Notes: generated by a model not told the origin, from the letters alone. A DNA stretch of 64,000 nucleotides from Opitutales bacterium (GCA_050331815.1 JBHJGM010000003.1:231855-295854), one strand, 5' to 3'. Numbered from the stretch's first letter, positions 13,929-30,149 are shown. Program-made: numbers and translations.

Positions 13929-14249
13929 ATGCAATCTATCCTTTTCCTGACCTGCCTACTGGTTGCGTCTGACACAGTCCTTGCTTCGAGCGAGGAACCT
14001 GTGGCGGCGACGCATTTGGTTGCTCTGAGTGAACCTGCCGAAGCTATCGTCGTCAGCTCAAACATCGGTGACACGGCGTCGACACCTACGGGTGCTGTCG
14101 CCGAAGACTCGGTGGGCCTTGCCAGCTTACTTGGCGCGCTGCCCGGAGTGGACGACAACCTCGAGCCCTCGATATACGCACTGGCTTCGGCGTTTATCTT
14201 TCTGGGGCTGGTAGCGGTGCGTCGCCTGCGTCGGCCCAAAATGTTCTAG
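13929..14249 (+). CDS. Small secreted PEP-CTERM-tailed protein (106 aa)
   Basis: Signal peptide MQSILFLTCLLVASDTVLASS, then an acidic Ser/Thr/Ala-rich middle region. The C-terminus LEPSIYALASAFIFLGLVAVRRLRRPK has the (P)EP-S motif + TM helix + Arg cluster of a PEP-CTERM signal. Confidence 0.65.
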   Translation: MQSILFLTCLLVASDTVLASSEEPVAATHLVALSEPAEAIVVSSNIGDTASTPTGAVAEDSVGLASLLGALPGVDDNLEPSIYALASAFIFLGLVAVRRLRRPKMF

Positions 14250-15439
14250 GTCAGCCCGACTGCGACGGGCTCGCTGTATTCGTGTCGGCACGCCTGCTGT
14301 CGCAAGGGTTGCTGGGTAACCGCAGCTGCGTCTGCGTTCGTTTGATTGCCCCGGGCGTCCAAGTACTCGGGAAACGCTTCCAACGCCTGCTCGAAGCAAT
14401 GCAGGGCCTCGGTTTCCCGGCCAAGGTTTCTCAGAGAGACTCCGAGGTTGTTCAGGGTCTCTGGGGTGGGTAGACGCTCCTGCGCGGATTGGAATCGATG
14501 GTGCGCTTCTGCCCAATCGCGTAGGCTTAGCGCCAGCACCCCGAGCATAAAATCAATTCGCCAACCCTCCGGGCGTGGCATTGGGCCCTCCGGCTCCAGA
14601 ATGTGGTTGCGTTCGGATTCGGGCAGCCTGTCGAGCTCTTCGAGCATCCTCCGAAGCATAGGAAAGTCCTCTCGAAAGGAGGCCATGGAAAGCAGCGCCC
14701 ATTGTGCAACCCGCTCCGAATACCCGGCTTCGCGGTAAAGTGTTTGGACGGCTTCATAATCGAAACTGCGCAGGGATTCCGCCGTGGTTCGACGCATGCG
14801 GTCGAGATTGCGGGAAACGCTGCCGGGGTAGGCGCACATGCGGTAGCCAATTTCCGGCAGCAGCGCCACGGGTACTCGCGCCACGGCTGCCCGCAGCAGC
14901 AGATCGCTGTCCTCGGCGGATTCCAGGTTCAGTCGGTAACCCAGTTCCTTGGCCACCTCGCGGCGAATTGCGATCTGACCGGCTCCGGGCAGGTAATTGC
15001 GCTCAAACTGGCGCACCAGCCAGCGGTCGCGAAACATAAATGGCGGGATCTGTGCCTCGCGCAGAAAGCGGTCCGAAGGCCCGTCGAAAAGCGCCACGCC
15101 GTCGCTGGCGATGCCTGCTTCGTGAGTCTCCAGAGCGCTAAGGAGACGACGGGTGCGGCCCGGCAAAAAGGCATCGTCTGCGTCGAGCCAAATGCCGCAA
15201 TCGGTTTCCAGCGCCTCGAAACCCGCCTGACGGGTCAGCGCCAGCGTGCGGTGGGCTGGCGGCTGAACCACTCGAAGGGGCCGCGTACCGGCGGCTGCTC
15301 GGGCGTTGGCCACGGTGGCATCCGAAGAAAAATCATCGATCAGGATGATCTCGGCGATCGGTTCCTCCACCACGGAGCGTACCGCACGGCCAATGGTTGG
15401 GGCCGCATTGCGGGCGGCTATGAGTACGGTCGCCTCCAT
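14246..15439 (-). CDS. Family 2 glycosyltransferase with C-terminal TPR-like region
   Basis: VLIAARNAAPTIGRAVRSV..IILIDDFSSDAT plus a DADD (DxD) motif. The C-terminal LNNLGVSLRNLGRETEALHCFEQALEAFPEY is TPR-like. Confidence 0.8.
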   Translation of the reverse strand: MEATVLIAARNAAPTIGRAVRSVVEEPIAEIILIDDFSSDATVANARAAAGTRPLRVVQPPAHRTLALTRQAGFEALETDCGIWLDADDAFLPGRTRRLLSALETHEAGIASDGVALFDGPSDRFLREAQIPPFMFRDRWLVRQFERNYLPGAGQIAIRREVAKELGYRLNLESAEDSDLLLRAAVARVPVALLPEIGYRMCAYPGSVSRNLDRMRRTTAESLRSFDYEAVQTLYREAGYSERVAQWALLSMASFREDFPMLRRMLEELDRLPESERNHILEPEGPMPRPEGWRIDFMLGVLALSLRDWAEAHHRFQSAQERLPTPETLNNLGVSLRNLGRETEALHCFEQALEAFPEYLDARGNQTNADAAAVTQQPLRQQACRHEYSEPVAVGLT

Positions 15440-15452
15440 GCGTGGGTGTGGT

Positions 15453-16919
15453 TCAATCCTGGTCCAATCCGATTACGGTAGGCATCGGACAGCGCGCGGA
15501 TCGATAAATCGAAGCCAGGCGCGCCCGCATTTGAGCACCAAATTCGCGCGAACCCAGCAGGATGCTTTCAGGCCGCAGGGAGTTGGGCAGTGCGCTGGGC
15601 TCGTGAATGTACAGGCCGGAGTACGCACGCCCTTGCTGCAGTGGATCCGCGTCCACAAAACCATCGATACTCAACCCCCCGGAGGCGCAGCGATCCGCCA
15701 GCGAGCGCCCAAAATTACCGGCCCCGTAGATAAAGGTAGGCGTTTCTGGCGAGACGGTGAGGACGCGCTGCAACAACGTTTCTACCGCTGCTTCCTGCGG
15801 GGAAAGCTCCGGGATTTGAAAGGCCTTGGGCAACGGCTGCGCAAAACAGGCGCTGGCGATTCGCTGGAAAGCCTCACGATGGGCTGCCTCGCCGCGCTGA
15901 GATAAAATTCGCGCCCGGGCTGCCGTTTTCAGCCGCTCGAGTCTGGGGCGGTTGCGGTGAAGATCTGCAAGCACTTCGGCCATCGCTGTCGTATCGCCCT
16001 GGGGAACCAGACAGCCGGTTTCGTCCTCGATGACCACTTCATCCACACCCGAGTCGATTTTCATGACGACCGGGCACACACGTGCGGCCATGGCTTCGGC
16101 GAGGGCCAGAGGGTTGCCTTCGTAGGCCGAGGTCAACAGGCAGACATCGGCCCGGGCCAAGTGTTCGGCAACCGCCTCTGGAGGCACGCGCCCGATGAAG
16201 CGTACGTGTCCCGATTCCAGCAAGCCGGCAGTGACAAAGGCCTGGGGCAAGCGGTGCTCCTCGGGTCCGGCCCCAACCACTTGCAGTGTGAAAGGTACGT
16301 CCATTGCTTTCAGGCGGTGCGCAACCTCCACCAGACGGCTGACCCGCTTCTGCGTTTCCTCCAGCCGCCCCACGTAAACCAGGCGCAGGGGCTGAGTTGA
16401 ATCGAGGCCCGCGGCAGAGCTATGCGCGGACTCGGGCTGGGGGTAGGGCAGCGTGTGCAAGCGCCGGCGAGCTTCCGCGCTGAATTTCTGGGAAAGTCGT
16501 TCGGTCAGGTGCTCGCTGACGGCGATGATGCCCGCAAAGAGCGCTTCGTAATGTTTGAGGATGAGCCCGGTGTTGGGGTCGTCGTTGTGCGCAAAGCCCA
16601 GGAAGCGCACGCTTGGGTGGTCAGGGTGGGCCAGCAGCCAGAGCCGTGCCGCTTCGTGAGCGGTCTGGCCTGCGTTGGGCAGGATCAGCGCCGGCGTATC
16701 GGGGGCTTCGTTCACCCAGTTTTCGATGGCCTCGACGATTTTCTCCGGCTGGTGCGCCTGGCCTTCCGGCAGTCGACGGCAACGTGTATCCAAGGGCAAC
16801 GCGGCGCCCCCCAGTTGCAGGATCTCGACCGTGGGAAACGTGCGATGCAGCCAGCGCCCGTAGGTGGTGACCCCGCTGACTTGCCAATCGGCTTGGTCGA
16901 TAAAAAGGGTACGCATCAA
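15453..16919 (-). CDS. GT-B (GT4-like) glycosyltransferase with C-terminal PglD_N-like Rossmann half-domain
   Basis: GT1/GT4 C-terminal signature RLVYVGRLEETQKR..FIGRV..LLTSAYEGNPLALAEAMAA. The tail is FIYGAGNFGRSLADRCASGGLSIDGFVDADPLQQGRAYSGLYIHEPSAL. Confidence 0.8.
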   Translation of the reverse strand: MMRTLFIDQADWQVSGVTTYGRWLHRTFPTVEILQLGGAALPLDTRCRRLPEGQAHQPEKIVEAIENWVNEAPDTPALILPNAGQTAHEAARLWLLAHPDHPSVRFLGFAHNDDPNTGLILKHYEALFAGIIAVSEHLTERLSQKFSAEARRRLHTLPYPQPESAHSSAAGLDSTQPLRLVYVGRLEETQKRVSRLVEVAHRLKAMDVPFTLQVVGAGPEEHRLPQAFVTAGLLESGHVRFIGRVPPEAVAEHLARADVCLLTSAYEGNPLALAEAMAARVCPVVMKIDSGVDEVVIEDETGCLVPQGDTTAMAEVLADLHRNRPRLERLKTAARARILSQRGEAAHREAFQRIASACFAQPLPKAFQIPELSPQEAAVETLLQRVLTVSPETPTFIYGAGNFGRSLADRCASGGLSIDGFVDADPLQQGRAYSGLYIHEPSALPNSLRPESILLGSREFGAQMRARLASIYRSARCPMPTVIGLDQD

Positions 16920-17008
16920 GGCGTCTACTCGGCGTTTTGCCGCAACGATAAATAGCTCGCCGTTACGGGGTTACTTAACTGGTTGCCAGCGCCGACGATC
17001 AGGCGGGG

Positions 17009-19153
17009 GTGACGGTAGAGACCATCGCATCGCTGCCCGCAGCACATACGCGACACTCTCCGGAGCCAGGTTGCCGTATCGACAAGGCGCGCATTTCGCC
17101 TGCCGCGTTTGCGGGCTTCCTGGCCTCTGGGTGTGGGGCTGCGCTGCGCCATCTTTTCTCCGAGCCTGCGCTAGTTTCTGAACAGCCGCTAAACGCTGCC
17201 ATGCAGGAGGCCTGGGAAGCGCTGTTTGGCTGCCTGCCGCAATTTTCGCCCACCGATGCGCAAGGCCCCCGCGTGCTCAGCTTGGAGGCATTTGCCGCAG
17301 ACGCGCCGACAGACCGGTGCGTACTCAGCCTGCTGGGCGCAAATCGGGAAGCGGCTGGACGCGCCCTGCTGCGTTGGGGTCCGCAGCCGCAAATCCATTT
17401 TCTGAGCGAATTCACGCCCGATGAATTGAGTACTTGCCTGACGGCGCCCTGGGCCGAGACGCTGCCCGCTCGCTGGCTCCGCATGGACGTGGATCTGCCC
17501 GGCGAAATCTGCGCACGAGGGCAACCCGCCGATACGCTCTGGCTGCACGATACAGTAAACCCCAGGGCGCTGGAGCTGCTGTTTGAGACTCTGGATGCGT
17601 CTGGTGGAGATGGGCAGATCCCTTTGCGTGGACGATCACTTCGCCCGGAGGCAAACGCGCTCCACGAAGCCGCCCAAGGAATCGCCGCGGCCGAACGAGT
17701 GGTGATTGACTGTAAGCTTCCGGCTTTGGAGTTCTGGACCATCCGGGTCTGCGTGCAGTTGCAAAAGCCCTTTTTACTTCGGGAGGGACTGCAAGCATCG
17801 CCCACGCGCTACGCCGCTTTCGAACAAGGACCAGAGCTTTTGCAGCAGGATTGCCTGAAGCTGCGTGCCTTACTGGCGCGTTTGGAATCCAGTGACAGCG
17901 ATTTCATGCGCATGTGTGGCGAGTCCGCTCCGTCGCCTGAAGCGATCGAGCTTGGAGCGGACTTCGAAAAAGAGGTACCCATCGATTGGTTTTTGCGCCG
18001 GGCACGCCTGCGCAAGGAACTGCCCGGCAGCACGGTCCACTGGCTTTCCAACGCGTATACGCGGAGGCAACTGCTCGGTCTGGCGGCGGCCTCGACCACG
18101 TGGCGTCACTGGCTGTGCGAGCTCGAATTCACGATGGAGCGCTGCGTGCACGGCATCCTCCCGGAGTCGTACTTGAGGCGTATCTTCAATCAGGATACGC
18201 AGGGCTGTCTGGCGACCCTGCGAGCACTTTGTCCGGCGGGTTCAGGCAGGGTGCAGGACGAAGCCAGTTGGCCCTATCGCGTTTTCGATCTGGCTTTCAT
18301 CACAAGCGCCCAAAGGCAATCCCTGGGTGACTGGGAAACCTTCGGAGCCCTCGCGGGAGAGTTGCTCGTCAGTCGATCCGAGCCGGAGACCAACTCCCGT
18401 GCCCAGCAGGCGCTTCTGGCTTCCGCGTACCTGGCCGGTGCCGGGGTATCCGTCGACGGCCTTGAGCCTCAACTTGTTTTGGAGCGCTTCACCGGACCTT
18501 GGCTGCCTGCGTTATACGATGCCAGTGTGCGAACGATAGCGCGTCCAGTGGCCAAACGGTTGAGGACGTTTTTCGAAGCGCACGGCTATCCCGGCAAGGA
18601 TGGGCTGGAGCAGTCCTTCCGCCGTGCCTGGCTGGAGCTGTGGGAGGGGGCCTGGGATCGGGTGGTCGCAGGTGGCCTGGCCCTGAGCGAAGAATCCACC
18701 GAGGCTGCAGCGGCCTTTCAATTGAAGCTGGCGGACAGTCTGCTCTTGTGCGGACAGGTCGACCCGGCGCAGCGGCTGACGCAGGCCATCGCGCTTGAGA
18801 CCGTACAAGGCAGCCTGGATGCGCTGCGGCTGGCGGTCATCCGTCTGGCTGCGGGGGATCCCGAACGAACCCGCACGTGTCTTGCACAACTGCTCGAAGC
18901 ACTCGGCCCTGGTGATGAAAACATCGGGCTCAACGCGGGTTTTGCGCGGTTTTTCTGGCTGCTGTTCGAAGGCGTCGAAGCAGGCCTGGGCGCGACCTGG
19001 AGTCCGAGCTACGCCGCGCACGAACCAGAGTTGCTTGAACGCATACGGCTTAACCTTGGGTCACATTGGCCGAACGAGATCGCTGCTCCACATCGAAACG
19101 AAATCGACGCGCTCAGCCAGCGGCTGGTCTTTGTGCCACCCGCGGCAAATTGA
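17009..19153 (+). CDS. Large hypothetical protein (714 aa), no recognisable domain
   Basis: 2.1-kb ORF with GC-rich third positions, divergent from the GT4 gene. Its TGA overlaps the ATG of the next gene (TGATG). The start at GTG 17009 is uncertain. Confidence 0.6.
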   Translation: MTVETIASLPAAHTRHSPEPGCRIDKARISPAAFAGFLASGCGAALRHLFSEPALVSEQPLNAAMQEAWEALFGCLPQFSPTDAQGPRVLSLEAFAADAPTDRCVLSLLGANREAAGRALLRWGPQPQIHFLSEFTPDELSTCLTAPWAETLPARWLRMDVDLPGEICARGQPADTLWLHDTVNPRALELLFETLDASGGDGQIPLRGRSLRPEANALHEAAQGIAAAERVVIDCKLPALEFWTIRVCVQLQKPFLLREGLQASPTRYAAFEQGPELLQQDCLKLRALLARLESSDSDFMRMCGESAPSPEAIELGADFEKEVPIDWFLRRARLRKELPGSTVHWLSNAYTRRQLLGLAAASTTWRHWLCELEFTMERCVHGILPESYLRRIFNQDTQGCLATLRALCPAGSGRVQDEASWPYRVFDLAFITSAQRQSLGDWETFGALAGELLVSRSEPETNSRAQQALLASAYLAGAGVSVDGLEPQLVLERFTGPWLPALYDASVRTIARPVAKRLRTFFEAHGYPGKDGLEQSFRRAWLELWEGAWDRVVAGGLALSEESTEAAAAFQLKLADSLLLCGQVDPAQRLTQAIALETVQGSLDALRLAVIRLAAGDPERTRTCLAQLLEALGPGDENIGLNAGFARFFWLLFEGVEAGLGATWSPSYAAHEPELLERIRLNLGSHWPNEIAAPHRNEIDALSQRLVFVPPAAN

Positions 19154-20376
19154 TGGAGCGCGGCACCACACCCGACGTCATGCCCAGCGTTTATCTGCAT
19201 CTGGAAAACATCTGTAACCGTGTCCTGCTGGACGTGGAAAAAATCCGCAGCTACCTCATCAGCAACGGCTGCACGCTGACGCAGGATCGGGCCCGCGCCG
19301 ACAAGGTGCTGCTGGTGGGTTGCGCCTTTAACAACTACACCGAAACCGAATCAAAAAAGCGCCTGGATGAGTTTCTCGCCGAGAAAGCGCCAGCTCAGGA
19401 TATTTTTGTGCTCGAAGGGCTCGCCGACACCATGGGCCAGCGTCTGGCCAAGGAGGGCGTGCTGGATAAAAGCCGGATTATCCGGACCGGGCGCTACGGG
19501 GACCTAGACCCGGTCTTTGCGAAAAATCAGGCATTTTCAGAAACCCCCGAGGCCAACTTCTGGGGGCAGTACGCCACCGGCGCGGGCAACGCTACGGGCA
19601 CCTGCTGCTCGCACCGCAAGGGCGTTGGAACTTTCGACCGCTACGCCGTTCAGGTGGGCCACGGGTGCAACGATCGTTGCGCATTTTGCGGCGACAAAGT
19701 CGTGGTGAAGCACATTCGCAGCAAGCCGCTGGAAGATTGCCTGCGCGAGGTGCAACAGGGACTGGCGCTGGGCTATCAGCACATCGACCTGATCGGGGAT
19801 GATGTGGGTGCCTGGGGCATCGACCGCGATAAGTGCATTCTCGATTTGTTACGGCCCATCGTGGCGCTGGAGGGCGAATTCCAGCTCTGGATGGAGGAAC
19901 TCAATTTGAAGTACCTAGTGCGGCACCGCGCGGATTGGCCAGCTCTCCTGGAGACCGGACGCTTTCGGCGCATGGCGGTGGCCTTTCAGAGCGGGAACAC
20001 CCGAGTGCTGGAACTGATGCGGCGCGGCTACACACGCGAGGAGTTGCTGGATGTGGTTGCGCTGCTGCGCACCTACGACATCGAGCTGCATGGTCACGTC
20101 ATCATTGGCTTTCCCACCGAAACGCGCGAGGAGTTCGAGGAGTCCTTTGCAGTGATCGAAGCGGGCGGCTTTGCTAGCGTGAGCTTCTTTTTGTACCAGG
20201 ACCGCACGAACGCACCGGCCCACCGGATCGAGCCGAAAGTAGCGGAAGACGAAAAGCTCGAGCGCCTGGGTATCGCTGAAAAGCACTTTCGCGAGTTGGG
20301 CTACGGGGTGACGCGCCGGCCCGACAAGTTGCAAATTCTGCGCACGGAGGCCGCCCATGTCCCAAGCCCTGTGTGA
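19153..20376 (+). CDS. MiaB/RimO-like radical-SAM methylthiotransferase-family protein lacking a TRAM domain
   Basis: N-terminal UPF0004-like segment LENICNRVLLDVEKIRSYL..ADKVLLVGCAF. Radical-SAM motif GHGCNDRCAFCG, followed by RSKPLEDCLREV and IIGFPTETREEFEES. Only ~40 aa follow the core. ATG 19153 was chosen over the longer ORF from 19066. Confidence 0.75.
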   Translation: MERGTTPDVMPSVYLHLENICNRVLLDVEKIRSYLISNGCTLTQDRARADKVLLVGCAFNNYTETESKKRLDEFLAEKAPAQDIFVLEGLADTMGQRLAKEGVLDKSRIIRTGRYGDLDPVFAKNQAFSETPEANFWGQYATGAGNATGTCCSHRKGVGTFDRYAVQVGHGCNDRCAFCGDKVVVKHIRSKPLEDCLREVQQGLALGYQHIDLIGDDVGAWGIDRDKCILDLLRPIVALEGEFQLWMEELNLKYLVRHRADWPALLETGRFRRMAVAFQSGNTRVLELMRRGYTREELLDVVALLRTYDIELHGHVIIGFPTETREEFEESFAVIEAGGFASVSFFLYQDRTNAPAHRIEPKVAEDEKLERLGIAEKHFRELGYGVTRRPDKLQILRTEAAHVPSPV

Positions 20377-22714
20377 GCCTACCGACCCTGCCTTTTACGA
20401 GGCGGAGTATCGCGAATACTGGAACCGTCCCGACCGCTGGAACACAGATTCCTTCGAAGACGCCGACACCATCGCGGCGACGATCCTGCGCACCTGCGGG
20501 CCGGGTGCGGTGCTGGATGTCGGGTGCGGGATGGGATCACTGGTCAAGGCGCTGCTCAAACTGGGACTCGATACCCACGGGCTCGACGTCACCGAACGCA
20601 CGGTCGCCCACGGCAACACGTTTTCTCCGGGCCGCTTTCACCTGGGCTCAGCCCTGAAGCTGCCTTTCGAGGACGGGGCCTTCGATACACTGGTTTCGAC
20701 CGACTGCCTCGAGCACATCGCCGCCGAGCATCTACCGCAGGTCTTGCGGGAGTTCCGGCGCGTGGCCAGGCGAAACGTTTACGTCCGCGTGGCGACTACC
20801 CCCGACCGTGACCGCCGCTGGCACCTGACTGTGCAGCCGCGGGCCTGGTGGGAGCAGCAGTTCATCGATGCCGGCTTCCTGCGCCATCCGCGCCTGTTGC
20901 AAGTGCGCAACTTCTGCGATCTCGGCGCGGATGACTGGAATGTTTCCATGCTCTGGCAAAAGACGGGCACCCAGTTGGCGGCTTCGACGGGTAATGGCTT
21001 TTTGGACGTCGTCGGCGGCGAGGCCGAAGCTGCCCTTGCCCGACTGGTGCAAGCCGCCGAGACCCTGCGACCGAACGACCGTGCGCTGGTGGTCGGTCCG
21101 CGGGCAGCGCACGCGGCAATTGTACTGAGCGAACTGGCTCAGGTTGACACCGTCAGCGCGTACCACACGCCTGATAGCATCGATGCTGACGGCGTCTGGG
21201 ACTGGATTTTTCTGGAGGTAGCTCAAGCGGATCTCCCGTTGTATCAGAATCTATGTACGCGCCTGGTGCCAGGGGGACGTCTGGTGCTAAGTCTGGCCGA
21301 AGCCGAACACTCTGGCCAGACCCCCGGCAGCGTGCTGGAGTCATTTCCAGACCTGCACGGCGAAAAGGCTTGGCGTATCGCTTTGGCGGATACGGCGCAC
21401 CAGCCTCCGTTGCCCCGGCGGCAGGATCGTATCGATCTGCAATCGAAGCTCACTTCCAGCGTGCAAAGCTGGGTTGTCGCCATTGGTCTGAAAGACCCCT
21501 TCGCGGGCTCTCCCGAGGCCTACACACAGCGCATCTATCCGCAGCTGAATTTGACTGGGTTGAACCTCAAAGCTTTCGAGCGCGACTACGAAAACCCCTG
21601 GCTGGTTAATGCCCTGGTTGTCTGGGGGCAACGGGCCGATAACGACGCGTTGCTCAAGTCCCTGGCCGAACGTACGCTGGCGGACGCATCGGCAGCCGGC
21701 GCTGCGGACCGTGGCGCGGCTTTGTGCGTACTGCTATATCGCGAGCTGGAAAACGTTTCAGCGGATGAAAAAGCCGCGCGTAAGCGACTTGCGGAAGTCG
21801 AAAATTATCTGACCACGCCCGCCCAAAATCCACACCAACTGCGCTGGCGCATTTCGCTGGAGTTTGCCTCCGCCTGTCTGCTGCAAGCCCTCGGCGAACT
21901 CGCAGAAGCCGAGAACCGCTTTTTCACCTGCAGCCAACGGGATGCCGGCGCGTTCAGCCCGCTGCTGGGGACCAAGACCGTCGCCGCCGCCTTCAAGGCC
22001 GGTTGGCTGGCAGCATGTCAGGGAAATCTGGATACAGCTCGCGAGCGCTGGCAGTGGGGGATCGAATCGGCGCAGGGTCTCTGCCAGGGCTCGTGGTTTG
22101 AGATTCTTGGGAAAGCCTGCGACCCGTATCCCTGGGGTTTGATGGAACTGCAGGAAGTCCTTGGCTGGGCTCAGCGCTGTGCGCAGGCGCTGGAGGGCAG
22201 CAAGCAGTTTGAGCGTAGCCCCGCGCGGTTGGCGGCTTGCGTGGAGTTTTCGCTGGCCCAGCGAGAGAAAGCCCAGCTGACGACCCTGCGCGAGTTGCAG
22301 CTTGGTGCAAGCCAGGCCGGGCAGCGTATCCACGAGTTGGAGACAGAGGTGCGCGATCAGGTGCGGCAGCTACGCCAGCTCTGGCAACAGCGTATCCTTC
22401 GGGAATCGGCGCAGCGCGAGGTGCTCTTCTGGGGGGCGAGTGTCTGCGGCACGCACGCATTGGATTACTTAGAGCAGGCCTCCGGGCAGGTGAGCGGCTT
22501 TATCGACAAGGACCCCGCCAAAATCGGCACCGCTTTTCAGAAGCGCCCGGTCAACGCTCCGGACGTGTTGCAGGCCCTGGCTGTGAAACCATTTGTGGCG
22601 ATCACCTCTGTTCACGCGCCCGCCATCGCACGTGAACTGACCGAGGCGGGCTGGGTCGAGGAAACGGATTTTGCCAACCTCTTCGCGCCGGTCATGCGCT
22701 GGAAGCACATCTAG
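20357..22714 (+). CDS. Multidomain class I SAM-dependent methyltransferase (785 aa) with helical/coiled-coil region and C-terminal PglD_N-like module
   Basis: Motif I VLDVGCGMGSLVKALLKLGLDTHGLDV plus FDTLVSTDCLEHI. A second, degenerate Rossmann-like segment (RALVVGPRAAHAAIVL..PGGRLVLSL). Coiled coil (LQLGASQAGQRIHELETEVRDQVRQLRQL). Tail VLFWGASVCGTHALDYLEQASGQVSGFIDKDPAKIGTAFQKRPVNAPDVL. Confidence 0.75.
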   Translation: MSQALCEPTDPAFYEAEYREYWNRPDRWNTDSFEDADTIAATILRTCGPGAVLDVGCGMGSLVKALLKLGLDTHGLDVTERTVAHGNTFSPGRFHLGSALKLPFEDGAFDTLVSTDCLEHIAAEHLPQVLREFRRVARRNVYVRVATTPDRDRRWHLTVQPRAWWEQQFIDAGFLRHPRLLQVRNFCDLGADDWNVSMLWQKTGTQLAASTGNGFLDVVGGEAEAALARLVQAAETLRPNDRALVVGPRAAHAAIVLSELAQVDTVSAYHTPDSIDADGVWDWIFLEVAQADLPLYQNLCTRLVPGGRLVLSLAEAEHSGQTPGSVLESFPDLHGEKAWRIALADTAHQPPLPRRQDRIDLQSKLTSSVQSWVVAIGLKDPFAGSPEAYTQRIYPQLNLTGLNLKAFERDYENPWLVNALVVWGQRADNDALLKSLAERTLADASAAGAADRGAALCVLLYRELENVSADEKAARKRLAEVENYLTTPAQNPHQLRWRISLEFASACLLQALGELAEAENRFFTCSQRDAGAFSPLLGTKTVAAAFKAGWLAACQGNLDTARERWQWGIESAQGLCQGSWFEILGKACDPYPWGLMELQEVLGWAQRCAQALEGSKQFERSPARLAACVEFSLAQREKAQLTTLRELQLGASQAGQRIHELETEVRDQVRQLRQLWQQRILRESAQREVLFWGASVCGTHALDYLEQASGQVSGFIDKDPAKIGTAFQKRPVNAPDVLQALAVKPFVAITSVHAPAIARELTEAGWVEETDFANLFAPVMRWKHI

Positions 22715-22731
22715 TCGAAGCGATTTGCCAC

Positions 22732-24078
22732 ATGATTTACGATCCAGCCGAAACTGAAATTCGCCTGAACCCGAGCGGCGAAGGCACCGGTGTCGCGCGC
22801 GCCGCGTACGATGCGGGTCGCCCGGAAAAAGCTCTGGGTGCGCTCTGCCATGCGCCGTTCGTGGGGCTGGATTTTTCGCCTACGGGCCACGTCACGGTCT
22901 GCAACCACTTCCATCAATCGCTGGCTCAAGTGGATGAAGACTTTTCCATTCTGGAGTTCTGGCGCGGTCCGGCGCTGAAGGCACTGCGGCAATCGATGCG
23001 GCAGTATCGGATCAATCCCGAGCACTGTCGCCACTGCGCCTATCAGATTCAGGCCCGTAGTTTTACGGAAACCTTCGCGCGTGCGCAGTACGATGTTTCA
23101 GCAACGGGCGATTTCGACCCGCCGTATCCGCGCCGGATGATCTTTCGCCTCAACAACACCTGCAACCAGGCCTGCGTGATGTGCAGTGCGTCGACGTCCT
23201 CGCGATTCCGCAAGGAGGTCGAGGGTCTGCCGCTGGAGGCCTCGCGCTACGGCCCCAGGTTTTTCGCTGAGCTTGAGGAAATCCTGCCGCACCTGGAGCA
23301 CATCGAATTTTACGGCGGCGAGCCGTTTCTGGTGCGTGAACACCTGCGCATTTTCGAGCTGCTGGAGTCTACCCAGTCCCCTGCCACGCTTTACGTTAAC
23401 ACCAACGCCACGGCCCTCAACGCCCGCTCGAAGGGCTTTCTTGAGCGGCTCAACTTTACCTGCATCGCGGTCTCCATGGACGCCGTCAGCGCTCAGGTGC
23501 ATGAGACCGTACGCTTTGGCCTGAAGCAGGAGCGCTTCCTGGCCAACCTGGATTGGCTGCAAAAGCTGGCGCAGCGCCGGGGCATCTACCTGGTGCTCAA
23601 CGTAACCGAACACCGCAAGAACTGGTTCGAGCTACCACAGATTTTTGAGTTCGCCGTAACGCGCGATTTGCCCATCCACATCAACACCTGTGTGCACCCG
23701 GCCAACGTTACCCTCTACACCCTCGACGACGGGCACCTGCGCTATCTCGATGACTTTTTCACCCGCCATTTTGAGCGGTTGAGCGAGGCCTGGTCCGACT
23801 TCCGCAACCGCCCGGCCTACCAGCATTTGCTCAGCCTGGTGCGCGGGGAGCTCGACAAGCGAAACGCGGGTGAGCGAACGACTTCGTTTGGCCACTCCAA
23901 GCTCAGCGATGGTCTGCTGGCGGTCCCGCTGCCCGGCGAAGGCACCTTTGCCGAGCCGGCGGTCATCGACTTCGAACTGAGTCGGATGCGTGAGTTTTTG
24001 GACGAAGCGGAGTTCGAACGGATGGAACGCGGCCTGCGCGCGCGGGCGACCGCAGCGACTGAAACTTCAGTTGTATAG
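22732..24078 (+). CDS. Radical-SAM protein with N-terminal SPASM/twitch-like Cys motif
   Basis: The N-terminus CHAPFVGLDFSPTGHVTVCNHF..EFWRGPALKALR..EHCRHCAYQ has the C-x2-P..G-x4-C..C-x2-C SPASM/twitch pattern. It precedes the core motif LNNTCNQACVMC (CxxxCxxC) and FYGGEPFL. Confidence 0.75.
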   Translation: MIYDPAETEIRLNPSGEGTGVARAAYDAGRPEKALGALCHAPFVGLDFSPTGHVTVCNHFHQSLAQVDEDFSILEFWRGPALKALRQSMRQYRINPEHCRHCAYQIQARSFTETFARAQYDVSATGDFDPPYPRRMIFRLNNTCNQACVMCSASTSSRFRKEVEGLPLEASRYGPRFFAELEEILPHLEHIEFYGGEPFLVREHLRIFELLESTQSPATLYVNTNATALNARSKGFLERLNFTCIAVSMDAVSAQVHETVRFGLKQERFLANLDWLQKLAQRRGIYLVLNVTEHRKNWFELPQIFEFAVTRDLPIHINTCVHPANVTLYTLDDGHLRYLDDFFTRHFERLSEAWSDFRNRPAYQHLLSLVRGELDKRNAGERTTSFGHSKLSDGLLAVPLPGEGTFAEPAVIDFELSRMREFLDEAEFERMERGLRARATAATETSVV

Positions 24079-26154
24079 CAGCACGTGCTCGAGCTTAAGG
24101 TGCTGCAAGCGCTGGTGCATCTGCGTTTCCGCCGCGCGCGAGGAGTAGATCACGGTGTCGATGGATGCCGCGGGCAGGCACTCCGGGCTCCAGCAGGGCT
24201 TGCCTAGGAAGGTGCCGCCTGAACGGCGGTCGACAAAGCCCGCCAGTCCGTCGGCCAACCACGGGCACAGCAGCAGAAGTACCCGCGTGTGCTCGCCGAT
24301 GCCGTAGATGGCGATGCGCGCCTTGTGCGCCCCCCAGTCAGCCTTGCGTGCCAGCAAGCGATCGCGTGCGCCGAGCAATTCCCGAGAGAGCGGGACTGCC
24401 CCGTCTGCCGGGCACAAGGCAGCCAGCAGGTGGTAAATCGAGGACGGTGCTTTCACTTGCGAGAGCACCTGGATCAGCGGCGACAAATCGGGGCGACGGC
24501 CTGCCGGCAGGGCTCCGAGCGCTTTGACCTGATTGAGATCGAGCTTGGGTGTACCGCCCTGAGTACCGCGTTCAGTGCGAGCGGCAACGATCGGTGCGAC
24601 CGCAACCGTCTCGCCACGTAGCAGCAAACTGGATACGATCTCAGCGGGTATGGCGATTTCGCCAAAGCTGTCTTTCGAATCCGCGACGGCCACGGGTACA
24701 GCATACGCTTCCTTATCCAGCAGGAGCGTTTCCAAGTCGCAGGTCGTCGGCGCGCGCAGCAGGCCGTCTCCGCCGCCCGGCGCATCTTCCAGCACGAAGC
24801 CTAGCACGGCTTTTGCCTTCGATAAGGCGAGGGCATCTTTCAAATTTGCCTCAGCGGTTTCATCCAGGCAGACCGACCGGGGTAGGTGGACACGGGCAGA
24901 CGCGGAGGCGTCTCCGGGTTGGGCCGTTTGGATTGGCGGCTGCAGCCCGCGCATGAAAGATAACTGGCGGTCGTTCGCCTGATCCGCCTGAAAGCCCGTG
25001 CTGAAATCGACTTCCAGCCGGTCCTCGCGAAACACGGTTTCCAATTTCTCCTGGATGCCGCGCGTTGTCGGCATGCAAAGGAGGTGCGCGTTGGCCTCGC
25101 CAACGATCTCGGGGATGCCGCCCGCGCGCGTGGTCAGAAACGCCCGGCGGTTTTCAAAAAGCTCGATAACGGTAAAGGGGAGGTTGTCGAGGAGGCTTGG
25201 GGCAACGATGAGGCAGTTTTCGCGGGTTCGTAAAAGTTCCCAGACCTGCTGCGAGTCGAGGTTGCTTCGAATTTCCCAACGATTTGAAAAATGCGGTTCC
25301 AGGCTTGCTTGAATCACTTGGTCCGCCGGTCGACCGAGGACGGTCTCGGGTTTTCCCAGAAAGGTGATCTGGCGCACCTTTTCCTGAAGCAGCGTCGAGC
25401 GTTCCAGCGCCTGCAGAAAAAAGTGCAGCCCCTTGCGGGTTTCCAGCCGCCCGAAAAAAATCAGATCGCGAAACCCGCTGAAGCACGTCTTTGCACCTGG
25501 AGTTTGTGTAGGCTCGAAGGCGTAGGGAACCACGGTGATGCGCTCGCGTGGATGCTTCCAATGTGCGGCCATCCAGTCGGCCATGTGCGCCGAGGGCGCG
25601 GTCACGTTTTCACATAGCAGCGCCGAATGCCGCTCCATGTGGTGAATCTGCAGCGCACGGGCACCGGAAAAAGACTGCCGCATGCCCTGATAAGTCCAGC
25701 GCAGCGGACCATGCGCGGTCAGGGCGCAGCGCGTGTTCTCGAGCCCGAGCCCGGCCGCACGGTACTGCAGGCTACGCAGGCCGTGACCCAGAAACTCCTG
25801 AAAAAGCAGCGTGCGAAAAGGCTGTTTTTTTAGAAATTCCAGCACCTTGAGCGACTGGCGCATCTCGTCGCCGTCGGGCTGAAGCGCGTATCGATCGAGC
25901 TCGGGAGCATGCTTCGCGCACCATTCGTTGAGGTCTACGTACTTCAGGCCGTGCGCGCGCAAAAAATGACCCTGCCAGTAAGCCGGCATCTCTACGTTGG
26001 TGCGCCCGGTGTACAGGACGGTGATGTCTTCTCCGGCGCGTGCCAACAGGAGCGCTTGCCAGTAGCAGGCGGTTCCGACGCCGCCATTACGGTAAGGCCC
26101 GACAAATTCCGGCGCGATCAGGCAAACCGGCGAGATCCCCCTCGTGTCCTCCAA
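24067..26154 (-). CDS. GT-B glycosyltransferase, paralog 1, with long C-terminal extension ending in a PglD_N-like module
   Basis: CLIAPEFVGPYRNGGVGTACYWQA.., LIFFGRLETRKGLHFFLQAL, APSLLDNLPFTVIELFE..RAGGIPEIV. Tail IAIYGIGEHTRVLL..GFVDRRSGGTFLGKPCWSPECL. The ORF runs to 26379, but an in-frame TTG at 26154 gives M-EDTRGISPVCLIAPEF. That parallels the paralog start MEAGTCIVAPEF and avoids overlap with the divergent gene. Confidence 0.72.
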   Translation of the reverse strand: MEDTRGISPVCLIAPEFVGPYRNGGVGTACYWQALLLARAGEDITVLYTGRTNVEMPAYWQGHFLRAHGLKYVDLNEWCAKHAPELDRYALQPDGDEMRQSLKVLEFLKKQPFRTLLFQEFLGHGLRSLQYRAAGLGLENTRCALTAHGPLRWTYQGMRQSFSGARALQIHHMERHSALLCENVTAPSAHMADWMAAHWKHPRERITVVPYAFEPTQTPGAKTCFSGFRDLIFFGRLETRKGLHFFLQALERSTLLQEKVRQITFLGKPETVLGRPADQVIQASLEPHFSNRWEIRSNLDSQQVWELLRTRENCLIVAPSLLDNLPFTVIELFENRRAFLTTRAGGIPEIVGEANAHLLCMPTTRGIQEKLETVFREDRLEVDFSTGFQADQANDRQLSFMRGLQPPIQTAQPGDASASARVHLPRSVCLDETAEANLKDALALSKAKAVLGFVLEDAPGGGDGLLRAPTTCDLETLLLDKEAYAVPVAVADSKDSFGEIAIPAEIVSSLLLRGETVAVAPIVAARTERGTQGGTPKLDLNQVKALGALPAGRRPDLSPLIQVLSQVKAPSSIYHLLAALCPADGAVPLSRELLGARDRLLARKADWGAHKARIAIYGIGEHTRVLLLLCPWLADGLAGFVDRRSGGTFLGKPCWSPECLPAASIDTVIYSSRAAETQMHQRLQHLKLEHVLLYN

Positions 26155-26248
26155 GATGTGCGCATGACAGAACAGCGCCCGCCCGCCTGGCAAGCGAATT
26201 TGCCGACAGACCCTAAGCAGTTGCCCACGCGGGTCGATTCTCGCTGCT

Positions 26249-27757
26249 ATGGCTTTTGGCGCGCGCAGCGAACTCACTCGGGCTTTGTACCTTTGCGGGG
26301 AGCCCATCGCCGTTGGTAAAACCGGGCAATTGCTGCGCGAAGCCGGCATCGACTTTGAAGGCTGGCTGAGCCTGCCCAATCCCGGGGACGCAGCCAGCAG
26401 CGCGCGTCACCTTGAGGCCCGCCTCGCGGCCAACCCAGACCGCTACAATGGTGTGCAATGGATGCCGTGTTTCAGCGAGGCGGCGGATTTCATCCGTTTT
26501 CATGACGCGGTGCGAGCGTCGGATGTCTTGGCCGGATTGCGCTTGCTGCATCCGGCCTGGCTGCTGCGCTGGAATCCGGCAGCCAAAGCCTCGGGCATAC
26601 TTTTCACCGGCTTTTGGAGTTCGGGAAACACGATTCAGGGCGTGTTGCTGGATCAGCTTTGGCGCCAACGCGAAGCGCAGACCCGTCCTACGCCAGCAGT
26701 ACTGCAGTGTCGCCAATTGGCCCAGCAGTTTCAGGAGTGCCTGCGGATTTTTCAGGAACGCGCTTTCGTCGACAGTGGCCTGACCGACTTGCGCATCCGC
26801 AGTCACGAGCATTTTTGGCTGGGCAGTCTCTACGGTTTCGATGGTAACCACGGAGTCGTTGTGGGCCCGTTTGAGCATCGCCGTCCCTTCTGCGGCGAGT
26901 TTCTTTCCGGTCACTTTTGCGAGGAAGACGTCAGCGCCGATTCGCTACAGGCCTTGGGCTTGGAGCCCTGGCTGGCACTGAGGCACCCTCTCGACGTACT
27001 GTGCTCGCTGGCGGCGAAAACCACCTTCGAGAGCGATCGCCTGCCCAACCCGCCCGACCGCCTTAAGTTGCGCCAGGCCCGTCTGTCCTCGGTGGATTGG
27101 TTCCAGGCGCAATGCCGGCGTCTGGCCGATTATCTGGCAGGCTTTGCGCACCAGAATGCCGCCTGGAACCTGGCGCGTTTTGAAGCGCTCAATGCCAATC
27201 CCGAGCGCTGGATTTTTGCGGCGGCACGGCGGCTGGGCAGTGACTGCTCGGTGGCGGGCGCACGCGAGCTTTGGAACCGCTTTGGCTCGCGTCCGCTGTA
27301 CCCGGCCTGGCAATCCCACCACACGCCCCAGGCCCAGCGCCGTTCCTGGCAGGGCCTGCTGACCGAAGCGCATTTGGATTGTGCACGTGAGCACGGGCTG
27401 GAGTCCATGGCGTGTACCCTGGGTTATGGGGCCTTTAAGGAAACGCCGCTGCAACCCATGTGCGAAGCGCCAAAACTCGGTGAAGCCACCCCTGCAGACC
27501 GCGCGCAGATGGAACAGGTGGATCTCGATAAGCGCTCGGTACCGATTCGCGTGGGTAACCGTTCACTACGCCTGGAGTTCTGGGGTGGGGGCCCACGACC
27601 GTTGCTGGAAAAACGACTGCGCACGCCGGAACGCTGGCGCTTTATCGGGCTACTCGACCCGGATTTCGACATGGCCGCCGCGCCGGTCGAGTTGAGGGCG
27701 AATTCACGCCCAACGCAAAGTGTTCAGGAGTCAGCCTCGAATCCTTCGTCTGTGTAA
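26249..27757 (+). CDS. Hypothetical Trp/Arg-rich protein (502 aa), no recognisable domain
   Basis: 1.5-kb ATG-initiated ORF with GC-biased third positions. It is divergent from GT paralog 1 and its 3' end overlaps GT paralog 2 by 34 nt. The competing antisense ORF 26213-26914 degenerates into Arg-rich sequence. Confidence 0.55.
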   Translation: MAFGARSELTRALYLCGEPIAVGKTGQLLREAGIDFEGWLSLPNPGDAASSARHLEARLAANPDRYNGVQWMPCFSEAADFIRFHDAVRASDVLAGLRLLHPAWLLRWNPAAKASGILFTGFWSSGNTIQGVLLDQLWRQREAQTRPTPAVLQCRQLAQQFQECLRIFQERAFVDSGLTDLRIRSHEHFWLGSLYGFDGNHGVVVGPFEHRRPFCGEFLSGHFCEEDVSADSLQALGLEPWLALRHPLDVLCSLAAKTTFESDRLPNPPDRLKLRQARLSSVDWFQAQCRRLADYLAGFAHQNAAWNLARFEALNANPERWIFAAARRLGSDCSVAGARELWNRFGSRPLYPAWQSHHTPQAQRRSWQGLLTEAHLDCAREHGLESMACTLGYGAFKETPLQPMCEAPKLGEATPADRAQMEQVDLDKRSVPIRVGNRSLRLEFWGGGPRPLLEKRLRTPERWRFIGLLDPDFDMAAAPVELRANSRPTQSVQESASNPSSV

Positions 27758-30006
27758 AGCAGCACGTGGTGCCCGTCCGCTGTGGCCAGGCGTTTGCGCA
27801 TCTCGCGTTCGCGCCCGATGGACGAATAGATCACGCGATCGTCTGGCGTCAGGTGTAGATCCTCAGGCGCGACGATCGGCCTGCCCAGGAAATCGCCTGC
27901 ACCGCGTTGATCGACGAAAGCGGTCACCCGCTTGAGCAGTTCGGGCTGGGCCCCTAAGAGCGCGCGGGAATGTTCGCCCGCTCCGTAGATATACAGACGG
28001 CCTTCGCCCTGGCCTGGCTCTGACAGTGCGGCCTCCAACCGCCGACAGGCACGCCCAAAGGTGGCGTTCAATCCCCCCGGGCCATCCATCGAGCCCTGGC
28101 CGGGCTCCGCGGTGGGCGGGAACAGAAAATCCTGCAGGTCCTCCTCCGAAACCGAGGCCAGCTGGCGATAAAGTCCTTCGCCTCCGGAGCCGCCGCCAGC
28201 GGCGGTCAGTTGCGCCCGCGCCGCCAGAAACGACAGCAGCCAGTCCGGAAAAGCCGCGGGCGGACCATTTTCGGAACGCCCCAGCCATTCGCACAGGCGC
28301 AGGCGTTGTTCATTAAGTGCTTCGGGCGAACGGTTGAGCGCGCTCGCCTCGACCGAAGCGCAGACCTCCGGCAGGACTATCCAGCGCAGCCCGTGCAGCG
28401 CAGCGGCCAGGGCCAGTTCCCAAAGCGATTGCATTTGGGCCACATCCGGCCCGAGTGCTTCAACAAGGCGTGTGCGTTTGAGCAGCAGGAGTGGTCCACA
28501 CAGTGCGTGTTCAAACCAGCCAGCCTCCACACCCGGACCCAGTGGGGCAATCGTGTGCGGCGTCGCGCCCTTAGGATGGGTGACACGCACGTAGGCCGTG
28601 GCCCCAGCCAGCCCCGACGCCGTGGCCGCCTCAATGAGCGTCTCCACCGCTTGCGGATCCAGCGTCAACGCGGTGTCCTGCAGGAGCACCCAATCGTCGG
28701 TCGACGCCTGCAGCATTTCAGCGAGGACTTCCGGCTCCTGCTCCATGATCTGCGTGCAAGCGCTTGGATTGGAAGCTGCATTGCTGGCTGCTTGTTCCGG
28801 CGATGGCCGTAGCGAGTTGTGAAACTCCAAAAACCGTACATGTGCTTGCGGCGTATGGTAGCCGCCTTCATAACGCACCGTGACCGTACCGTCCTTCAGG
28901 ATACGCTCCAGGACTCTGCGCAGGTCTTCAGCTTCGGGAGCGCAGAGCAGGTGCGCGTTGTTTGGGCCCACGATTTCGGGAATACCGCCAACGCGCGTGC
29001 TCACAAATGGCAAGTTGCGCGTATACAATTCAACCAGCGTGTAGGGCAAATTATCCTGTATGCTGGGAGCCACCACCAAAATACCTTCCTGAGCCTGCAG
29101 CCACGCCCAGGCCTGGTGCGCGTCCTTGTCGCCCAGGATTTGCCACTCGTAGGGCAGGGGGGCCAAGCTTTCGGCGATGACCTCGGCGGCATCGCGACCA
29201 TTCAAATCGCTAGGGCGTCCCAGAAACGTGATTCGTGGTGCCCGCTGCTGCAACGGTTCAGAGTCCGCCAAGGCCTCGAGAAAGAGGTGCAGGCCTTTGC
29301 GGGTTTCCAGCCGTCCGAAAAACACCAGGTGGTTGAGTCCGGAAAAAGTCCGTTCGTTTTCGTCCGTTTCACCGGAAACACCCGACGGATCGAAGCAGTT
29401 GAAGAGGACATCCACTTCGCGCGTAAAGCCCCAACGGGTGCGAACCCAGTCAGCCATGTGCCGCGATGGCGCCACCAGCCGGTCGCAAAGCCGGGCCGTT
29501 TCTTTTTCCATGAAGTCGCGGTCGAGCTCGCCTTCGTGGCGCGGCACCATGTGCATACCTTCGTAAATCCAGTCCATGGGCGAGTGCAGGGTGGCGACGG
29601 TCACCGGTCGATAGCCGAGACGGTCACTGCACGCGGCCTGCAGCACCCGCAGTCCCTGGCCCAAAAATTCCTGCACATAAACCACCGCAAAACGCGCTTC
29701 GCGTGCAAAGGCCAGCACTTGCTCGGCTATGAAAAGCGGCTCGGCCTCCGGGAGCAGGTTGGGGGTGGCGCGGTTGTTTGCTTCCGCCCAACGGGCGAGA
29801 TCGACGTAGCGGATGCCCAATTCAGCTTGGAAGCGCTGGGCCCAGGTGGCGGCGTCGGCAGACATCGTCTGGCCGGTGTAAAGCACGGTCACGTCGTGGC
29901 CAGCCTGAGCCAAAACCACGGCCTGCCAGTAACAAGCCGTGCCAACCCCGCCATTTCTGAAAGGCCCCACAAACTCGGGTGCCACGATGCACGTCCCCGC
30001 CTCCAC
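27724..30006 (-). CDS. GT-B glycosyltransferase, paralog 2, with long C-terminal extension ending in a PglD_N-like module
   Basis: MEAGTCIVAPEFVGPFRNGGVGTACYWQA.., LVFFGRLETRKGLHLFLEAL, APSIQDNLPYTLVELYT..RVGGIPEIV. Tail LYIYGAGEHSRALLGAQPELLKRVTAFVDQRGAGDFLGRPIVAPEDL. Confidence 0.8.
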   Translation of the reverse strand: MEAGTCIVAPEFVGPFRNGGVGTACYWQAVVLAQAGHDVTVLYTGQTMSADAATWAQRFQAELGIRYVDLARWAEANNRATPNLLPEAEPLFIAEQVLAFAREARFAVVYVQEFLGQGLRVLQAACSDRLGYRPVTVATLHSPMDWIYEGMHMVPRHEGELDRDFMEKETARLCDRLVAPSRHMADWVRTRWGFTREVDVLFNCFDPSGVSGETDENERTFSGLNHLVFFGRLETRKGLHLFLEALADSEPLQQRAPRITFLGRPSDLNGRDAAEVIAESLAPLPYEWQILGDKDAHQAWAWLQAQEGILVVAPSIQDNLPYTLVELYTRNLPFVSTRVGGIPEIVGPNNAHLLCAPEAEDLRRVLERILKDGTVTVRYEGGYHTPQAHVRFLEFHNSLRPSPEQAASNAASNPSACTQIMEQEPEVLAEMLQASTDDWVLLQDTALTLDPQAVETLIEAATASGLAGATAYVRVTHPKGATPHTIAPLGPGVEAGWFEHALCGPLLLLKRTRLVEALGPDVAQMQSLWELALAAALHGLRWIVLPEVCASVEASALNRSPEALNEQRLRLCEWLGRSENGPPAAFPDWLLSFLAARAQLTAAGGGSGGEGLYRQLASVSEEDLQDFLFPPTAEPGQGSMDGPGGLNATFGRACRRLEAALSEPGQGEGRLYIYGAGEHSRALLGAQPELLKRVTAFVDQRGAGDFLGRPIVAPEDLHLTPDDRVIYSSIGREREMRKRLATADGHHVLLYTDEGFEADS

Positions 30007-30074: not shown

Positions 30075-30149
<75 letters not shown>

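Follow-up and report, generated by a model that had tools for sequence, protein, structure and literature searches.

Ten open reading frames (ORFs), designated P1 to P10, fill positions 13929-30006 of a 64-kb stretch of DNA (the window) from a metagenome-assembled genome (MAG) of the Opitutales (Verrucomicrobiota). These genes are read here, with fair probability, as a fast-diverging locus for the assembly and tailoring of a surface glycan of this Opitutales bacterium. They include a MiaB-like radical S-adenosylmethionine (SAM) enzyme, P5, and a class I SAM methyltransferase, P6. Counterparts of these two are found together in the glycan clusters of six or more phyla. Four of the ten proteins end in the same Rossmann-like module of ~90 residues. 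The cluster as a whole is of an ordinary type; the P5/P6 unit and the module are apparently undescribed, and the searchable literature yielded no characterised counterpart of the pair in glycan clusters, nor of C2185 or of an N-terminal twitch radical-SAM enzyme. To our knowledge, verrucomicrobial surface glycans are almost unstudied.

ORF calling and translation place the cluster between purH (12042-13658; PF01808, E=1e-111) on the left and two minus-strand tRNA genes, tRNA-Met (30075-30149) and tRNA-Asp (30221-30297), on the right. The ten genes, their order and their strands are those that an initial annotation of the sequence had listed. Its calls of a GT2-TPR (tetratricopeptide repeat) glycosyltransferase (GT), three GT-B enzymes, a radical-SAM enzyme, a methyltransferase and a twitch-type radical-SAM enzyme were reproduced with Pfam and NCBIfam, and P4 and P9 matched no family. 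The tight packing that it had described is present at all five places: the stop codon of P4 and the start codon of P5 share TGATG at 19151-19155, as read directly from the sequence; P5 and P6 overlap by 20 nucleotides (20357-20376); and convergent genes overlap at their 3' ends by 4 (14246-14249), 12 (24067-24078) and 34 nucleotides (27724-27757). A coding-type pattern of guanine-plus-cytosine (GC) content at the three codon positions (GC1/GC2/GC3) is seen in all ten ORFs, the orphans P4 and P9 included.

The P5/P6 pair and its glycan context

P5 (19153-20376, plus strand) resembles the methylthiotransferases MiaB, RimO and MtaB (TIGR00089), which combine the domains PF00919, PF04055 and TRAM. 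It has a radical-SAM domain (PF04055, E=3.9e-18) and a weak match to UPF0004 (PF00919, E=5.4e-7, 30 bits). The CxxxCxxC motif of the radical-SAM core, C172/C176/C179, is invariant in alignment A1, and the N-terminal domain keeps two conserved cysteines, C21 and C57. At the place of the third cysteine of the auxiliary cluster, which in the true MiaB and MtaB sequences of the alignment sits in a GC(M/Y)(A/S) motif, P5 and all 11 subfamily relatives have LEG(L/I/V)A instead (12 sequences; the Glu is not invariant). P5 has no TRAM match (PF01938 or PF18693), nor do its relatives, and it ends ~70 residues short of the TIGR00089 model, covering profile positions 9-357 of 429. Its scores fall below the cut-offs of TIGR00089 (165.8 bits against 251; E=1.4e-48), RimO (119.7 against 357; E=1.6e-34), MtaB (118.5 against 357) and MiaB (110.1 against 355). 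With an incomplete auxiliary cluster site, P5 is unlikely to catalyse canonical methylthiolation.

The homologs of P5 split into ~16 clusters at E=1e-127 to 1e-47 and the true MiaB, MtaB and RimO proteins at ~1e-32 to 1e-15. Members of the close clade lack TRAM, share 30-51% identity with P5 and, with few exceptions, have 365-426 residues. As judged from these sequence comparisons, P5 belongs to a rare clade that stands apart from MiaB and MtaB and departs from the methylthiotransferases in three defining features. A pattern-based scan of one genome per species, the counts of which are a lower bound, located the clade in 17 of 185,579 species genomes, with hosts among the Acidobacteriota, Deferribacterota, Desulfobacterota, Planctomycetota, Bacteroidota, Gemmatimonadota and Kiritimatiellales.

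The partner of P5 is the N-terminal part of P6 (20357-22714, plus strand), a protein of 785 residues composed of a class I methyltransferase domain (residues ~40-200; PF08241, E=8.2e-16), a conserved middle region (residues ~205-670) and the shared module (residues ~680-785; 22394-22711). A methyltransferase of this N-terminal type is adjacent to, fused to or within 3 kb of the P5-type radical-SAM gene in 12 of the 14 close loci, across at least six phyla; the two loci that lack it are short contigs. The methyltransferase domain of P6 is 41-52% identical to those beside P5-type enzymes in related loci (L002, L008/L009 and L013). Over its whole length, P6 aligns with a protein of locus L003 at 28% identity (787 residues), and its middle region is found again in L003, L013 and L026.

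Each P5-type neighbourhood examined is a glycan cluster. The neighbours of the radical-SAM genes encode GT2, GT4 and GT2-TPR enzymes, MptE/Maf-like proteins, sulfotransferases, FkbM and C-methyltransferases, RmlC/D-type enzymes for deoxythymidine diphosphate (dTDP)- and guanosine diphosphate (GDP)-sugars, GDP-heptose enzymes, RgpF, WsaF and WcbI, and several of the loci hold a second radical-SAM enzyme of the SPASM/twitch type. Covalent fusions extend this association. In Seleniivibrio woodruffii and a Deferribacteraceae MAG, a protein of 754 residues (L010, 9998-12259) joins a P5-type radical-SAM enzyme to a Sulfotransfer_3 domain and the module, and in a Desulfovibrio MAG a protein of 1442 residues (L016, 6779-11104) combines a methyltransferase, a GT4, a WsaF-like GT and a P5-type radical-SAM enzyme. 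Since the relatives of P5 sit among GTs and sugar genes and are fused to such enzymes, a place for P5, P6 and P7 in a glycan pathway, and not in housekeeping, is supported. The proposal of the initial annotation that radical-SAM enzymes and a methyltransferase act here in a glycan or glycoconjugate locus agrees with these neighbourhoods and with the fusions to GTs.

Two further open frames were noted in related loci. In L015, a radical-SAM domain occupies residues 561-910 of a 928-residue open frame, the N-terminal half of which has no Pfam match, and this may be a third fusion. In a Desulfosudis oleivorans MAG (L006, 6959-9103; JALMRV010000023.1), a 714-residue fusion of Radical_SAM and GT2 lies beside a P5-type radical-SAM gene amid many short, fragmentary ORFs, which may reflect frameshifts or MAG assembly errors.

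It is hardly credible that P5 is an ordinary housekeeping methylthiotransferase of the MiaB, MtaB or RimO kind lying beside an ordinary GT cluster by coincidence. Its best family matches are to these enzymes, and some of its relatives are annotated as MiaB by the Joint Genome Institute (JGI). However, its scores are far under the family cut-offs, the TRAM RNA-binding domain is absent, the third auxiliary cysteine is lost throughout the clade, the glycan context recurs across at least six phyla, P5-type enzymes occur fused to a sulfotransferase and to a methyltransferase with two GTs, and the gene itself overlaps both P4 and P6. Unlike MiaB, RimO and MtaB, P5 is found in a glycan and not a translation context, with a separate class I methyltransferase as partner. 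We know of no member of the MiaB/RimO/MtaB lineage that acts on carbohydrates.

How much of the window cluster is conserved was assessed by comparing its ten proteins with 25 related loci (tblastn and phmmer). P5 was matched in all 25 and the P6 methyltransferase in many, P2, P3, P8 and P10 gave generic GT matches only, P4 was matched only in L026, and P1, P7 and P9 were matched nowhere. The suggestion that P4, P5, P6 and P7 form a conserved cassette was not upheld: P4, P7 and P9 are without homologs in P5-type loci, and only the pair of P5 and the P6 N-terminal methyltransferase recurs. This pair, and nothing more of the cassette, is the conserved unit.

A bolder interpretation, which we regard as improbable and advance as speculation, is that P5/P6 is the first example of a branch of the methylthiotransferase-like radical-SAM lineage that acts on carbohydrates. 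The pair would install a glycan modification that has not been described, for example a C-S-linked thio or methylthio group or another radical-derived group that is then methylated, and the module would be the tag, for docking or for ligand binding, by which a tailoring complex of several enzymes is organised. In such a branch, a TRAM-less enzyme with just two N-terminal cysteines left would act together with its own SAM methyltransferase and, in some species, with a fused sulfotransferase. The pair is a specific and testable candidate for new sugar chemistry, with Seleniivibrio woodruffii as a named carrier. A lead for comparison is cluster VII associated with the C. jejuni HS:19 capsule, in which a methyltransferase lies beside a radical-SAM protein, both uncharacterised (PMC8743553).

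The shared C-terminal module and the glycosyltransferases

P3, P6, P8 and P10 end in a module with the pattern (I/F)YGAGxxG ... GF(V/I)D ... G ... P (alignment A2), which spans residues ~390-488 of P3 (15456-15752) and ~655-760 of P10. A hidden Markov model (HMM) built from the four window copies detected C-terminal copies on methyltransferases, GT4 enzymes and unassigned proteins in L002, L003, L008 and L013 (E=3e-16 to 5e-5), and N-terminal copies on an FkbM methyltransferase (L003) and an MptE-like protein (L004). With the profile extended by Deferribacteres copies, the module was also found in L026, where the ortholog of P3 carries it. The Deferribacteres loci hold four to five copies each of their own. 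The module, attached to many different tailoring enzymes, may mark this class of clusters.

The module shares a beta-alpha-beta pattern and the (I/F)YGAGxxG...GF(V/I)D...G signature with the N-terminal domains of NeuD, PglD, PerB and VioB (PF17836). In those proteins the domain precedes a left-handed beta-helix acetyltransferase, whereas in the window it stands at the C-terminus of GTs and a methyltransferase. All family matches of the window modules are below threshold (PglD_N, PF17836: E=0.0044 for P3 and 0.008 for P10), and the links to PDB entry 3nkl (E=1.5e-4) and to the N-domains of VioB and PerB are weak. Precomputed matches to PF22674 ('C2185-like_N') exist in proteins of L002, L006 and L026, of which those in L002 and L026 are also matched by the module HMM. 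Most likely, the module would bind a common nucleotide-linked ligand or dock the enzymes in one assembly line.

The four GTs have GT2 or GT4 Pfam domains above the gathering score. P2 (14246-15439, minus strand) combines a GT2 domain at residues 4-166 (PF00535, E=4.6e-20, 72.6 bits) with C-terminal TPRs at residues ~297-360 (TPR_2, E=2.9e-10). P3 (15453-16919, minus strand) is a GT4 enzyme of the GT-B type (PF00534, E=8.4e-30, 104 bits) followed by the module. P8 (open frame 24067-26379, minus strand; PF00534, 35.7 bits; PF13439, 30.5 bits) and P10 (27724-30006, minus strand; PF13439, E=5.3e-16, 59.5 bits; PF00534, E=1.9e-14, 54 bits) are both laid out as a GT-B domain, an uncharacterised middle region and the C-terminal module. 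They are paralogs, as had been proposed, with 43% identity over 417 residues (E=2e-104) and 44% identity in the module. The similarity begins at residue 85 of P8, and 'MEDTRGISPVCLIAPEF' of P8 corresponds to 'MEAGTCIVAPEF' of P10. P8 therefore most likely starts at the TTG codon at 26154 (24067-26154, ~695 residues), although its frame is open to 26379, and the apparent divergent overlap of P8 with P9 disappears with this start. No transmembrane (TM)-like segment was found in P2 to P10 (maximum 19-residue Kyte-Doolittle mean below 1.6); the only one in the cluster is in P1.

The gene content, the domain families, the conservation and fusions of the P5/P6 pair, the shared module and the difference between relatives are observations; the nature of the acceptor, what P5 and P7 catalyse, and the parts played by the module, P4 and P9 are matters of interpretation. 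In the proposed surface-glycan pathway, the soluble enzymes P2, P3, P8 and P10 would add sugars, on the cytoplasmic side, to an oligosaccharide whose carrier or acceptor had been primed by other genes. The P5/P6 unit would decorate one or more of the sugars: most likely, P5 would abstract a sugar hydrogen and thereby functionalise a C-H bond, and methyl transfer by P6 to the same residue or to the product would follow or accompany this step. P7 would carry out a second radical step. Initiation, flipping, polymerisation or ligation, and export would fall to genes in other parts of the genome, and the product would end on the cell surface.

A variable arm at a fixed chromosomal site

Evidence that the locus diverges rapidly comes from a syntenic relative, L026 (GCA_964405825.1, CAYOPI010000047.1), which occupies the same purH-adjacent site and shares the left arm of the window cluster but not its right arm. 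Its upstream order is an MBL-fold (metallo-beta-lactamase) hydrolase, ApaG, ThiS/H/G and purH, and purH is followed by a P1-like small secreted protein, a GT2, a GT4 and a P4-like protein. Between L026 and the window, the flanking genes are strongly conserved (MBL-fold hydrolase, 90% identity; purH, 86%) and the genes of the left arm much less so (GT2/P2, 57%; GT4/P3, 52%; P4-like protein, 34% over a partial match). The right arm of L026 (11857-21869) encodes a Sulfotransfer_1 protein, a CTP_transf_3 cytidylyltransferase of the type that makes cytidine monophosphate (CMP)-sugars, an HMGL-like aldolase or synthase, a haloacid dehalogenase (HAD) phosphatase, a GT2, a C2185-like_N protein, a P6-middle-like protein and another radical-SAM enzyme. 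The first four of these resemble a Kdo- or nonulosonate-like CMP-sugar pathway with an unusual aldolase.

Conserved flanks, a fast-evolving arm and a swapped arm would together be the signature of a hypervariable surface-glycan locus under diversifying selection. Such a pattern is that of O-antigen and capsule loci. Like O-antigen, capsule and S-layer-glycan loci, the window cluster mixes GT2 and GT4 enzymes with a methyltransferase and radical-SAM enzymes, occupies a fixed place in the chromosome and differs from one relative to another. Unlike them, it has no genes for sugar-nucleotide synthesis, an initiating transferase, Wzx/Wzy or an ABC (ATP-binding cassette)/Kps exporter. The Opitutales would accordingly carry, at a fixed site between purH and the tRNA genes, a rapidly diverging glycan cluster comparable to the O-antigen and capsule loci of other bacteria.

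The locus is chromosomal and non-mobile and is not a compositional island. The GC level is 0.59-0.65 throughout, at ~0.61, and there is no skew break. Because neither an integrase nor a tRNA-derived direct repeat is present, the term 'island', under which these genes had first been described, gives way to 'cluster'. It is highly unlikely that a horizontally acquired mobile element integrated here at tRNA-Met/tRNA-Asp. The cluster does abut two tRNA genes, the patchy spread of P5/P6 across phyla suggests horizontal transfer, and the right arm differs between relatives. Against integration stand the uniform composition, the lack of any integrase, transposase or recombinase in the cluster flanks, the lack of att-type or tRNA 3'-end direct repeats within 13600-30320, and the synteny of the left arm and flanks in L026; cassette exchange by homologous recombination fits these data better. 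Two Logan runs also contain the left half of the cluster, on an identical contig of 11.2 kb, and exact look-up of P7 and P9 in the contig collection returned no record.

Within the cluster, the P3-P2 operon runs leftward and the P4-P7 operon rightward from a divergent intergenic region at 16920-17008, which would extend to 17200 if P4 starts at the ATG at 17201. The segment 16920-17008 may serve as the promoter region for both.

Several observations weigh against a surface-glycan locus. Genes for an initiating phosphoglycosyltransferase, flippase, polymerase, ABC transporter or sugar-nucleotide synthesis are absent from the cluster and were not seen among the annotated ORFs elsewhere in the 64-kb window. 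The nine enzymes without TM segments would fit a cytoplasmic protein or a small-molecule acceptor equally well. The argument from variability stands on one syntenic relative. The one reaction known for the closest relatives of P5 is hard to reconcile with the loss of its third cysteine. Finally, the evidence for the fold and function of the module is weak: its AlphaFold2 (AF2) model, made from a four-sequence alignment, has a predicted local distance difference test (pLDDT) score of 64.6 with a beta-alpha-beta topology, and Foldseek against the PDB returned generic Rossmann folds only (E>=0.037), among them the N-domains of VioB and PglB.

The initial annotation had already set the cluster apart from a standard O-antigen, capsule or exopolysaccharide (EPS) locus, and the absence of initiation and export genes from the cluster bears this out. 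Pfam and NCBIfam searches detected no Wzx, Wzy, ABC exporter, initiating transferase or chain-length regulator family in it. Since P2 to P10 lack TM-like segments, none of the Wzx, Wzy, ABC or initiating transferase proteins is encoded inside the cluster. The annotated window ORFs outside it are housekeeping genes or unrelated to glycan export and include dinB, ApaG, thiG/H, a LacI-family regulator, DnaB, BamA, LpxD, Prs, DegP and LptF/G.

Possible acceptors, accessory proteins and other features of the window

P1 (13929-14249, plus strand) is a small secreted protein of 106 residues. Its signal peptide is followed by a middle rich in Ala, Ser, Thr and Pro and by a C-terminal tail (LEPS, TM helix, RRLRR) in the manner of PEP-CTERM proteins. 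Its tail, 'NLEPSIYALASAFIFLGLVAVRRLRRPK', is similar by eye to the PEP-CTERM motif. The PEP-CTERM HMMs (PF07589/TIGR02595) found nothing on P1 (Pfam E<=10, NCBIfam E<=0.01), and of the assignment first made to this family the signal peptide and the tail remain, without a profile match. A positional ortholog in L026 is 39% identical over 67 residues (pairwise E=6e-6) and shares the EP-TM-RRLR tail. A bona fide PEP-CTERM protein (PF07589, E=1.2e-5) is encoded farther along the window at 40845-41759 (plus strand), and the organism probably has an exosortase system; the annotated window ORFs did not include an exosortase.

P1, or other PEP-CTERM or surface proteins, could be the acceptor of a cytoplasmic protein glycosylation system in which the soluble GTs modify a protein directly and the radical-SAM enzymes and methyltransferase tailor the sugars. 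We consider such a system unlikely, although several features of the locus agree with it: the absence of lipid-carrier initiation, flippase and export genes and of TM segments in P2 to P10, the TPRs of P2 as a protein-binding module, the retention of P1 at the same position in L026, and the true PEP-CTERM protein in the window. MptE-like or Maf-like proteins also stand beside P5-type radical-SAM enzymes in three loci (L004, L007 and L008), and Maf proteins are flagellin glycosyltransferases. The window, however, contains no Maf/MptE-like, OGT-like or oligosaccharyltransferase gene, and none of the ten cluster proteins matches PF01973 (MptE-like). The Sec-type signal peptide of P1 would make cytoplasmic glycosylation before export unusual, fusions of TPRs to GT2 domains are not specific to protein acceptors, and several of the related loci contain classical polysaccharide genes such as those for RgpF, WsaF, WcbI and the GDP-heptose pathway.

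P7 (22732-24078, plus strand) has an N-terminal four-cysteine twitch/SPASM domain at residues 39-102 (PF13186, 24.0 bits; cut-off 21.5) and a Radical_SAM domain (PF04055) with its CxxxCxxC motif inside CNQACVMC. This order, a Cys-rich twitch/SPASM region followed by the radical-SAM core, is that of N_Twi_rSAM (NF033640), the best family match (E=1.6e-45), whose 170-bit cut-off P7 narrowly misses at 155.9 bits; no established function was found for this family. The metagenome scan returned only distant relatives (23-25% identity), and by sequence the only PDB match is SkfB (E=1.2e-3). A metagenome contig (Ga0222712_10003964; L030, 1041-11905) holds nine consecutive same-strand genes, of which eight have a Radical_SAM match, three of them with an additional N-terminal SPASM/twitch match. 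With proteins of 254-465 residues, it resembles a tandem array of N-twitch radical-SAM paralogs, distantly related to P7 (24%).

The remaining weak family matches of P7 are mostly to the radical-SAM/SPASM peptide maturases ScmE, WgkB, GggB and SkfB (E=1e-10 to 1e-3), which raises the prospect of a glycopeptide cluster akin to those of ribosomally synthesized and post-translationally modified peptides (RiPPs), or of a small-molecule glycoside cluster, in which the radical-SAM enzymes would modify a peptide or aglycone before glycosylation and methylation. The small ORF P1 adjoins, and peptide systems that combine GTs with radical-SAM enzymes are known (weak TIGR04157 matches). This origin is nevertheless very improbable. 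The maturase matches cover only the generic radical-SAM core, with N_Twi_rSAM as the best family; P1, with its signal peptide and membrane anchor, lacks a leader/core layout; genes for a protease, transporter, cyclase or aminotransferase are missing; four large GTs would be excessive; and the P5-type loci hold sugar-nucleotide pathways and polysaccharide GTs.

The two orphans have no match in Pfam, NCBIfam or the PDB (PDB sequence search E<=10). P4 (17009-19153, plus strand) is 714 residues long from a GTG start at 17009 or 650 from the ATG at 17201, the shorter call coming from the Logan assembly, and is predicted to be soluble. A word-indexed search of 5.8 billion proteins returned only P4 itself, and an exhaustive search of 1.84 billion representatives returned itself and one weak relative, P0123 (E=1.9e-6, 33% over 164 residues), which holds the same position in L026. 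P9 (26249-27757, plus strand; 502 residues) also found only itself among the 5.8 billion word-indexed proteins, recorded at NCBI on a 563-kb contig as 'MAG: hypothetical protein ACFBZ8_03435 [Opitutales bacterium]'. Its coding-type GC pattern spans the whole ORF. It is predicted to be soluble and mostly helical, and its single-sequence AF2 model (pLDDT 39) is unusable.

A sulfotransferase activity for P9 was considered because of three motifs seen by eye ('SSGNT', 'RHPLDVLCS' and 'RFEALNANPE') and because sulfotransferases lie beside or are fused to P5-type radical-SAM enzymes. The assignment to a divergent sulfotransferase (PF00685/PF13469) was rejected: hhalign gave a probability of 0.3%, there was no Pfam match, and a local sulfotransferase HMM run with --max over 283 six-frame window ORFs did not report P9.

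Elsewhere in the window, a third radical-SAM protein of 451 residues with a weak PF04055 match (E=1.2e-6) is encoded at 35577-36932 (minus strand), 5.5 kb past the cluster, beside DUF547 and a putative lipoprotein. A bacterial GPP34 (Golgi phosphoprotein 3) homolog (PF05719, E=9.4e-43) lies at 40104-40772 (plus strand) beside a Cys/Met pyridoxal phosphate (PLP) enzyme. An ORF of 585 residues at 9735-11492 (plus strand), with no Pfam match and a lower GC3 of 0.65, is probably a spurious antisense frame over minus-strand thiH and thiG, with ThiG probably at 10680-11477 (minus strand); its tblastn matches in L026 coincide with ThiH and ThiG called on the opposite strand. Near the left end, a protein of 1280 residues (89-3931, plus strand) with DUF5060, collagen-binding-like and cadherin domains is probably a large secreted glycan-binding protein or hydrolase.

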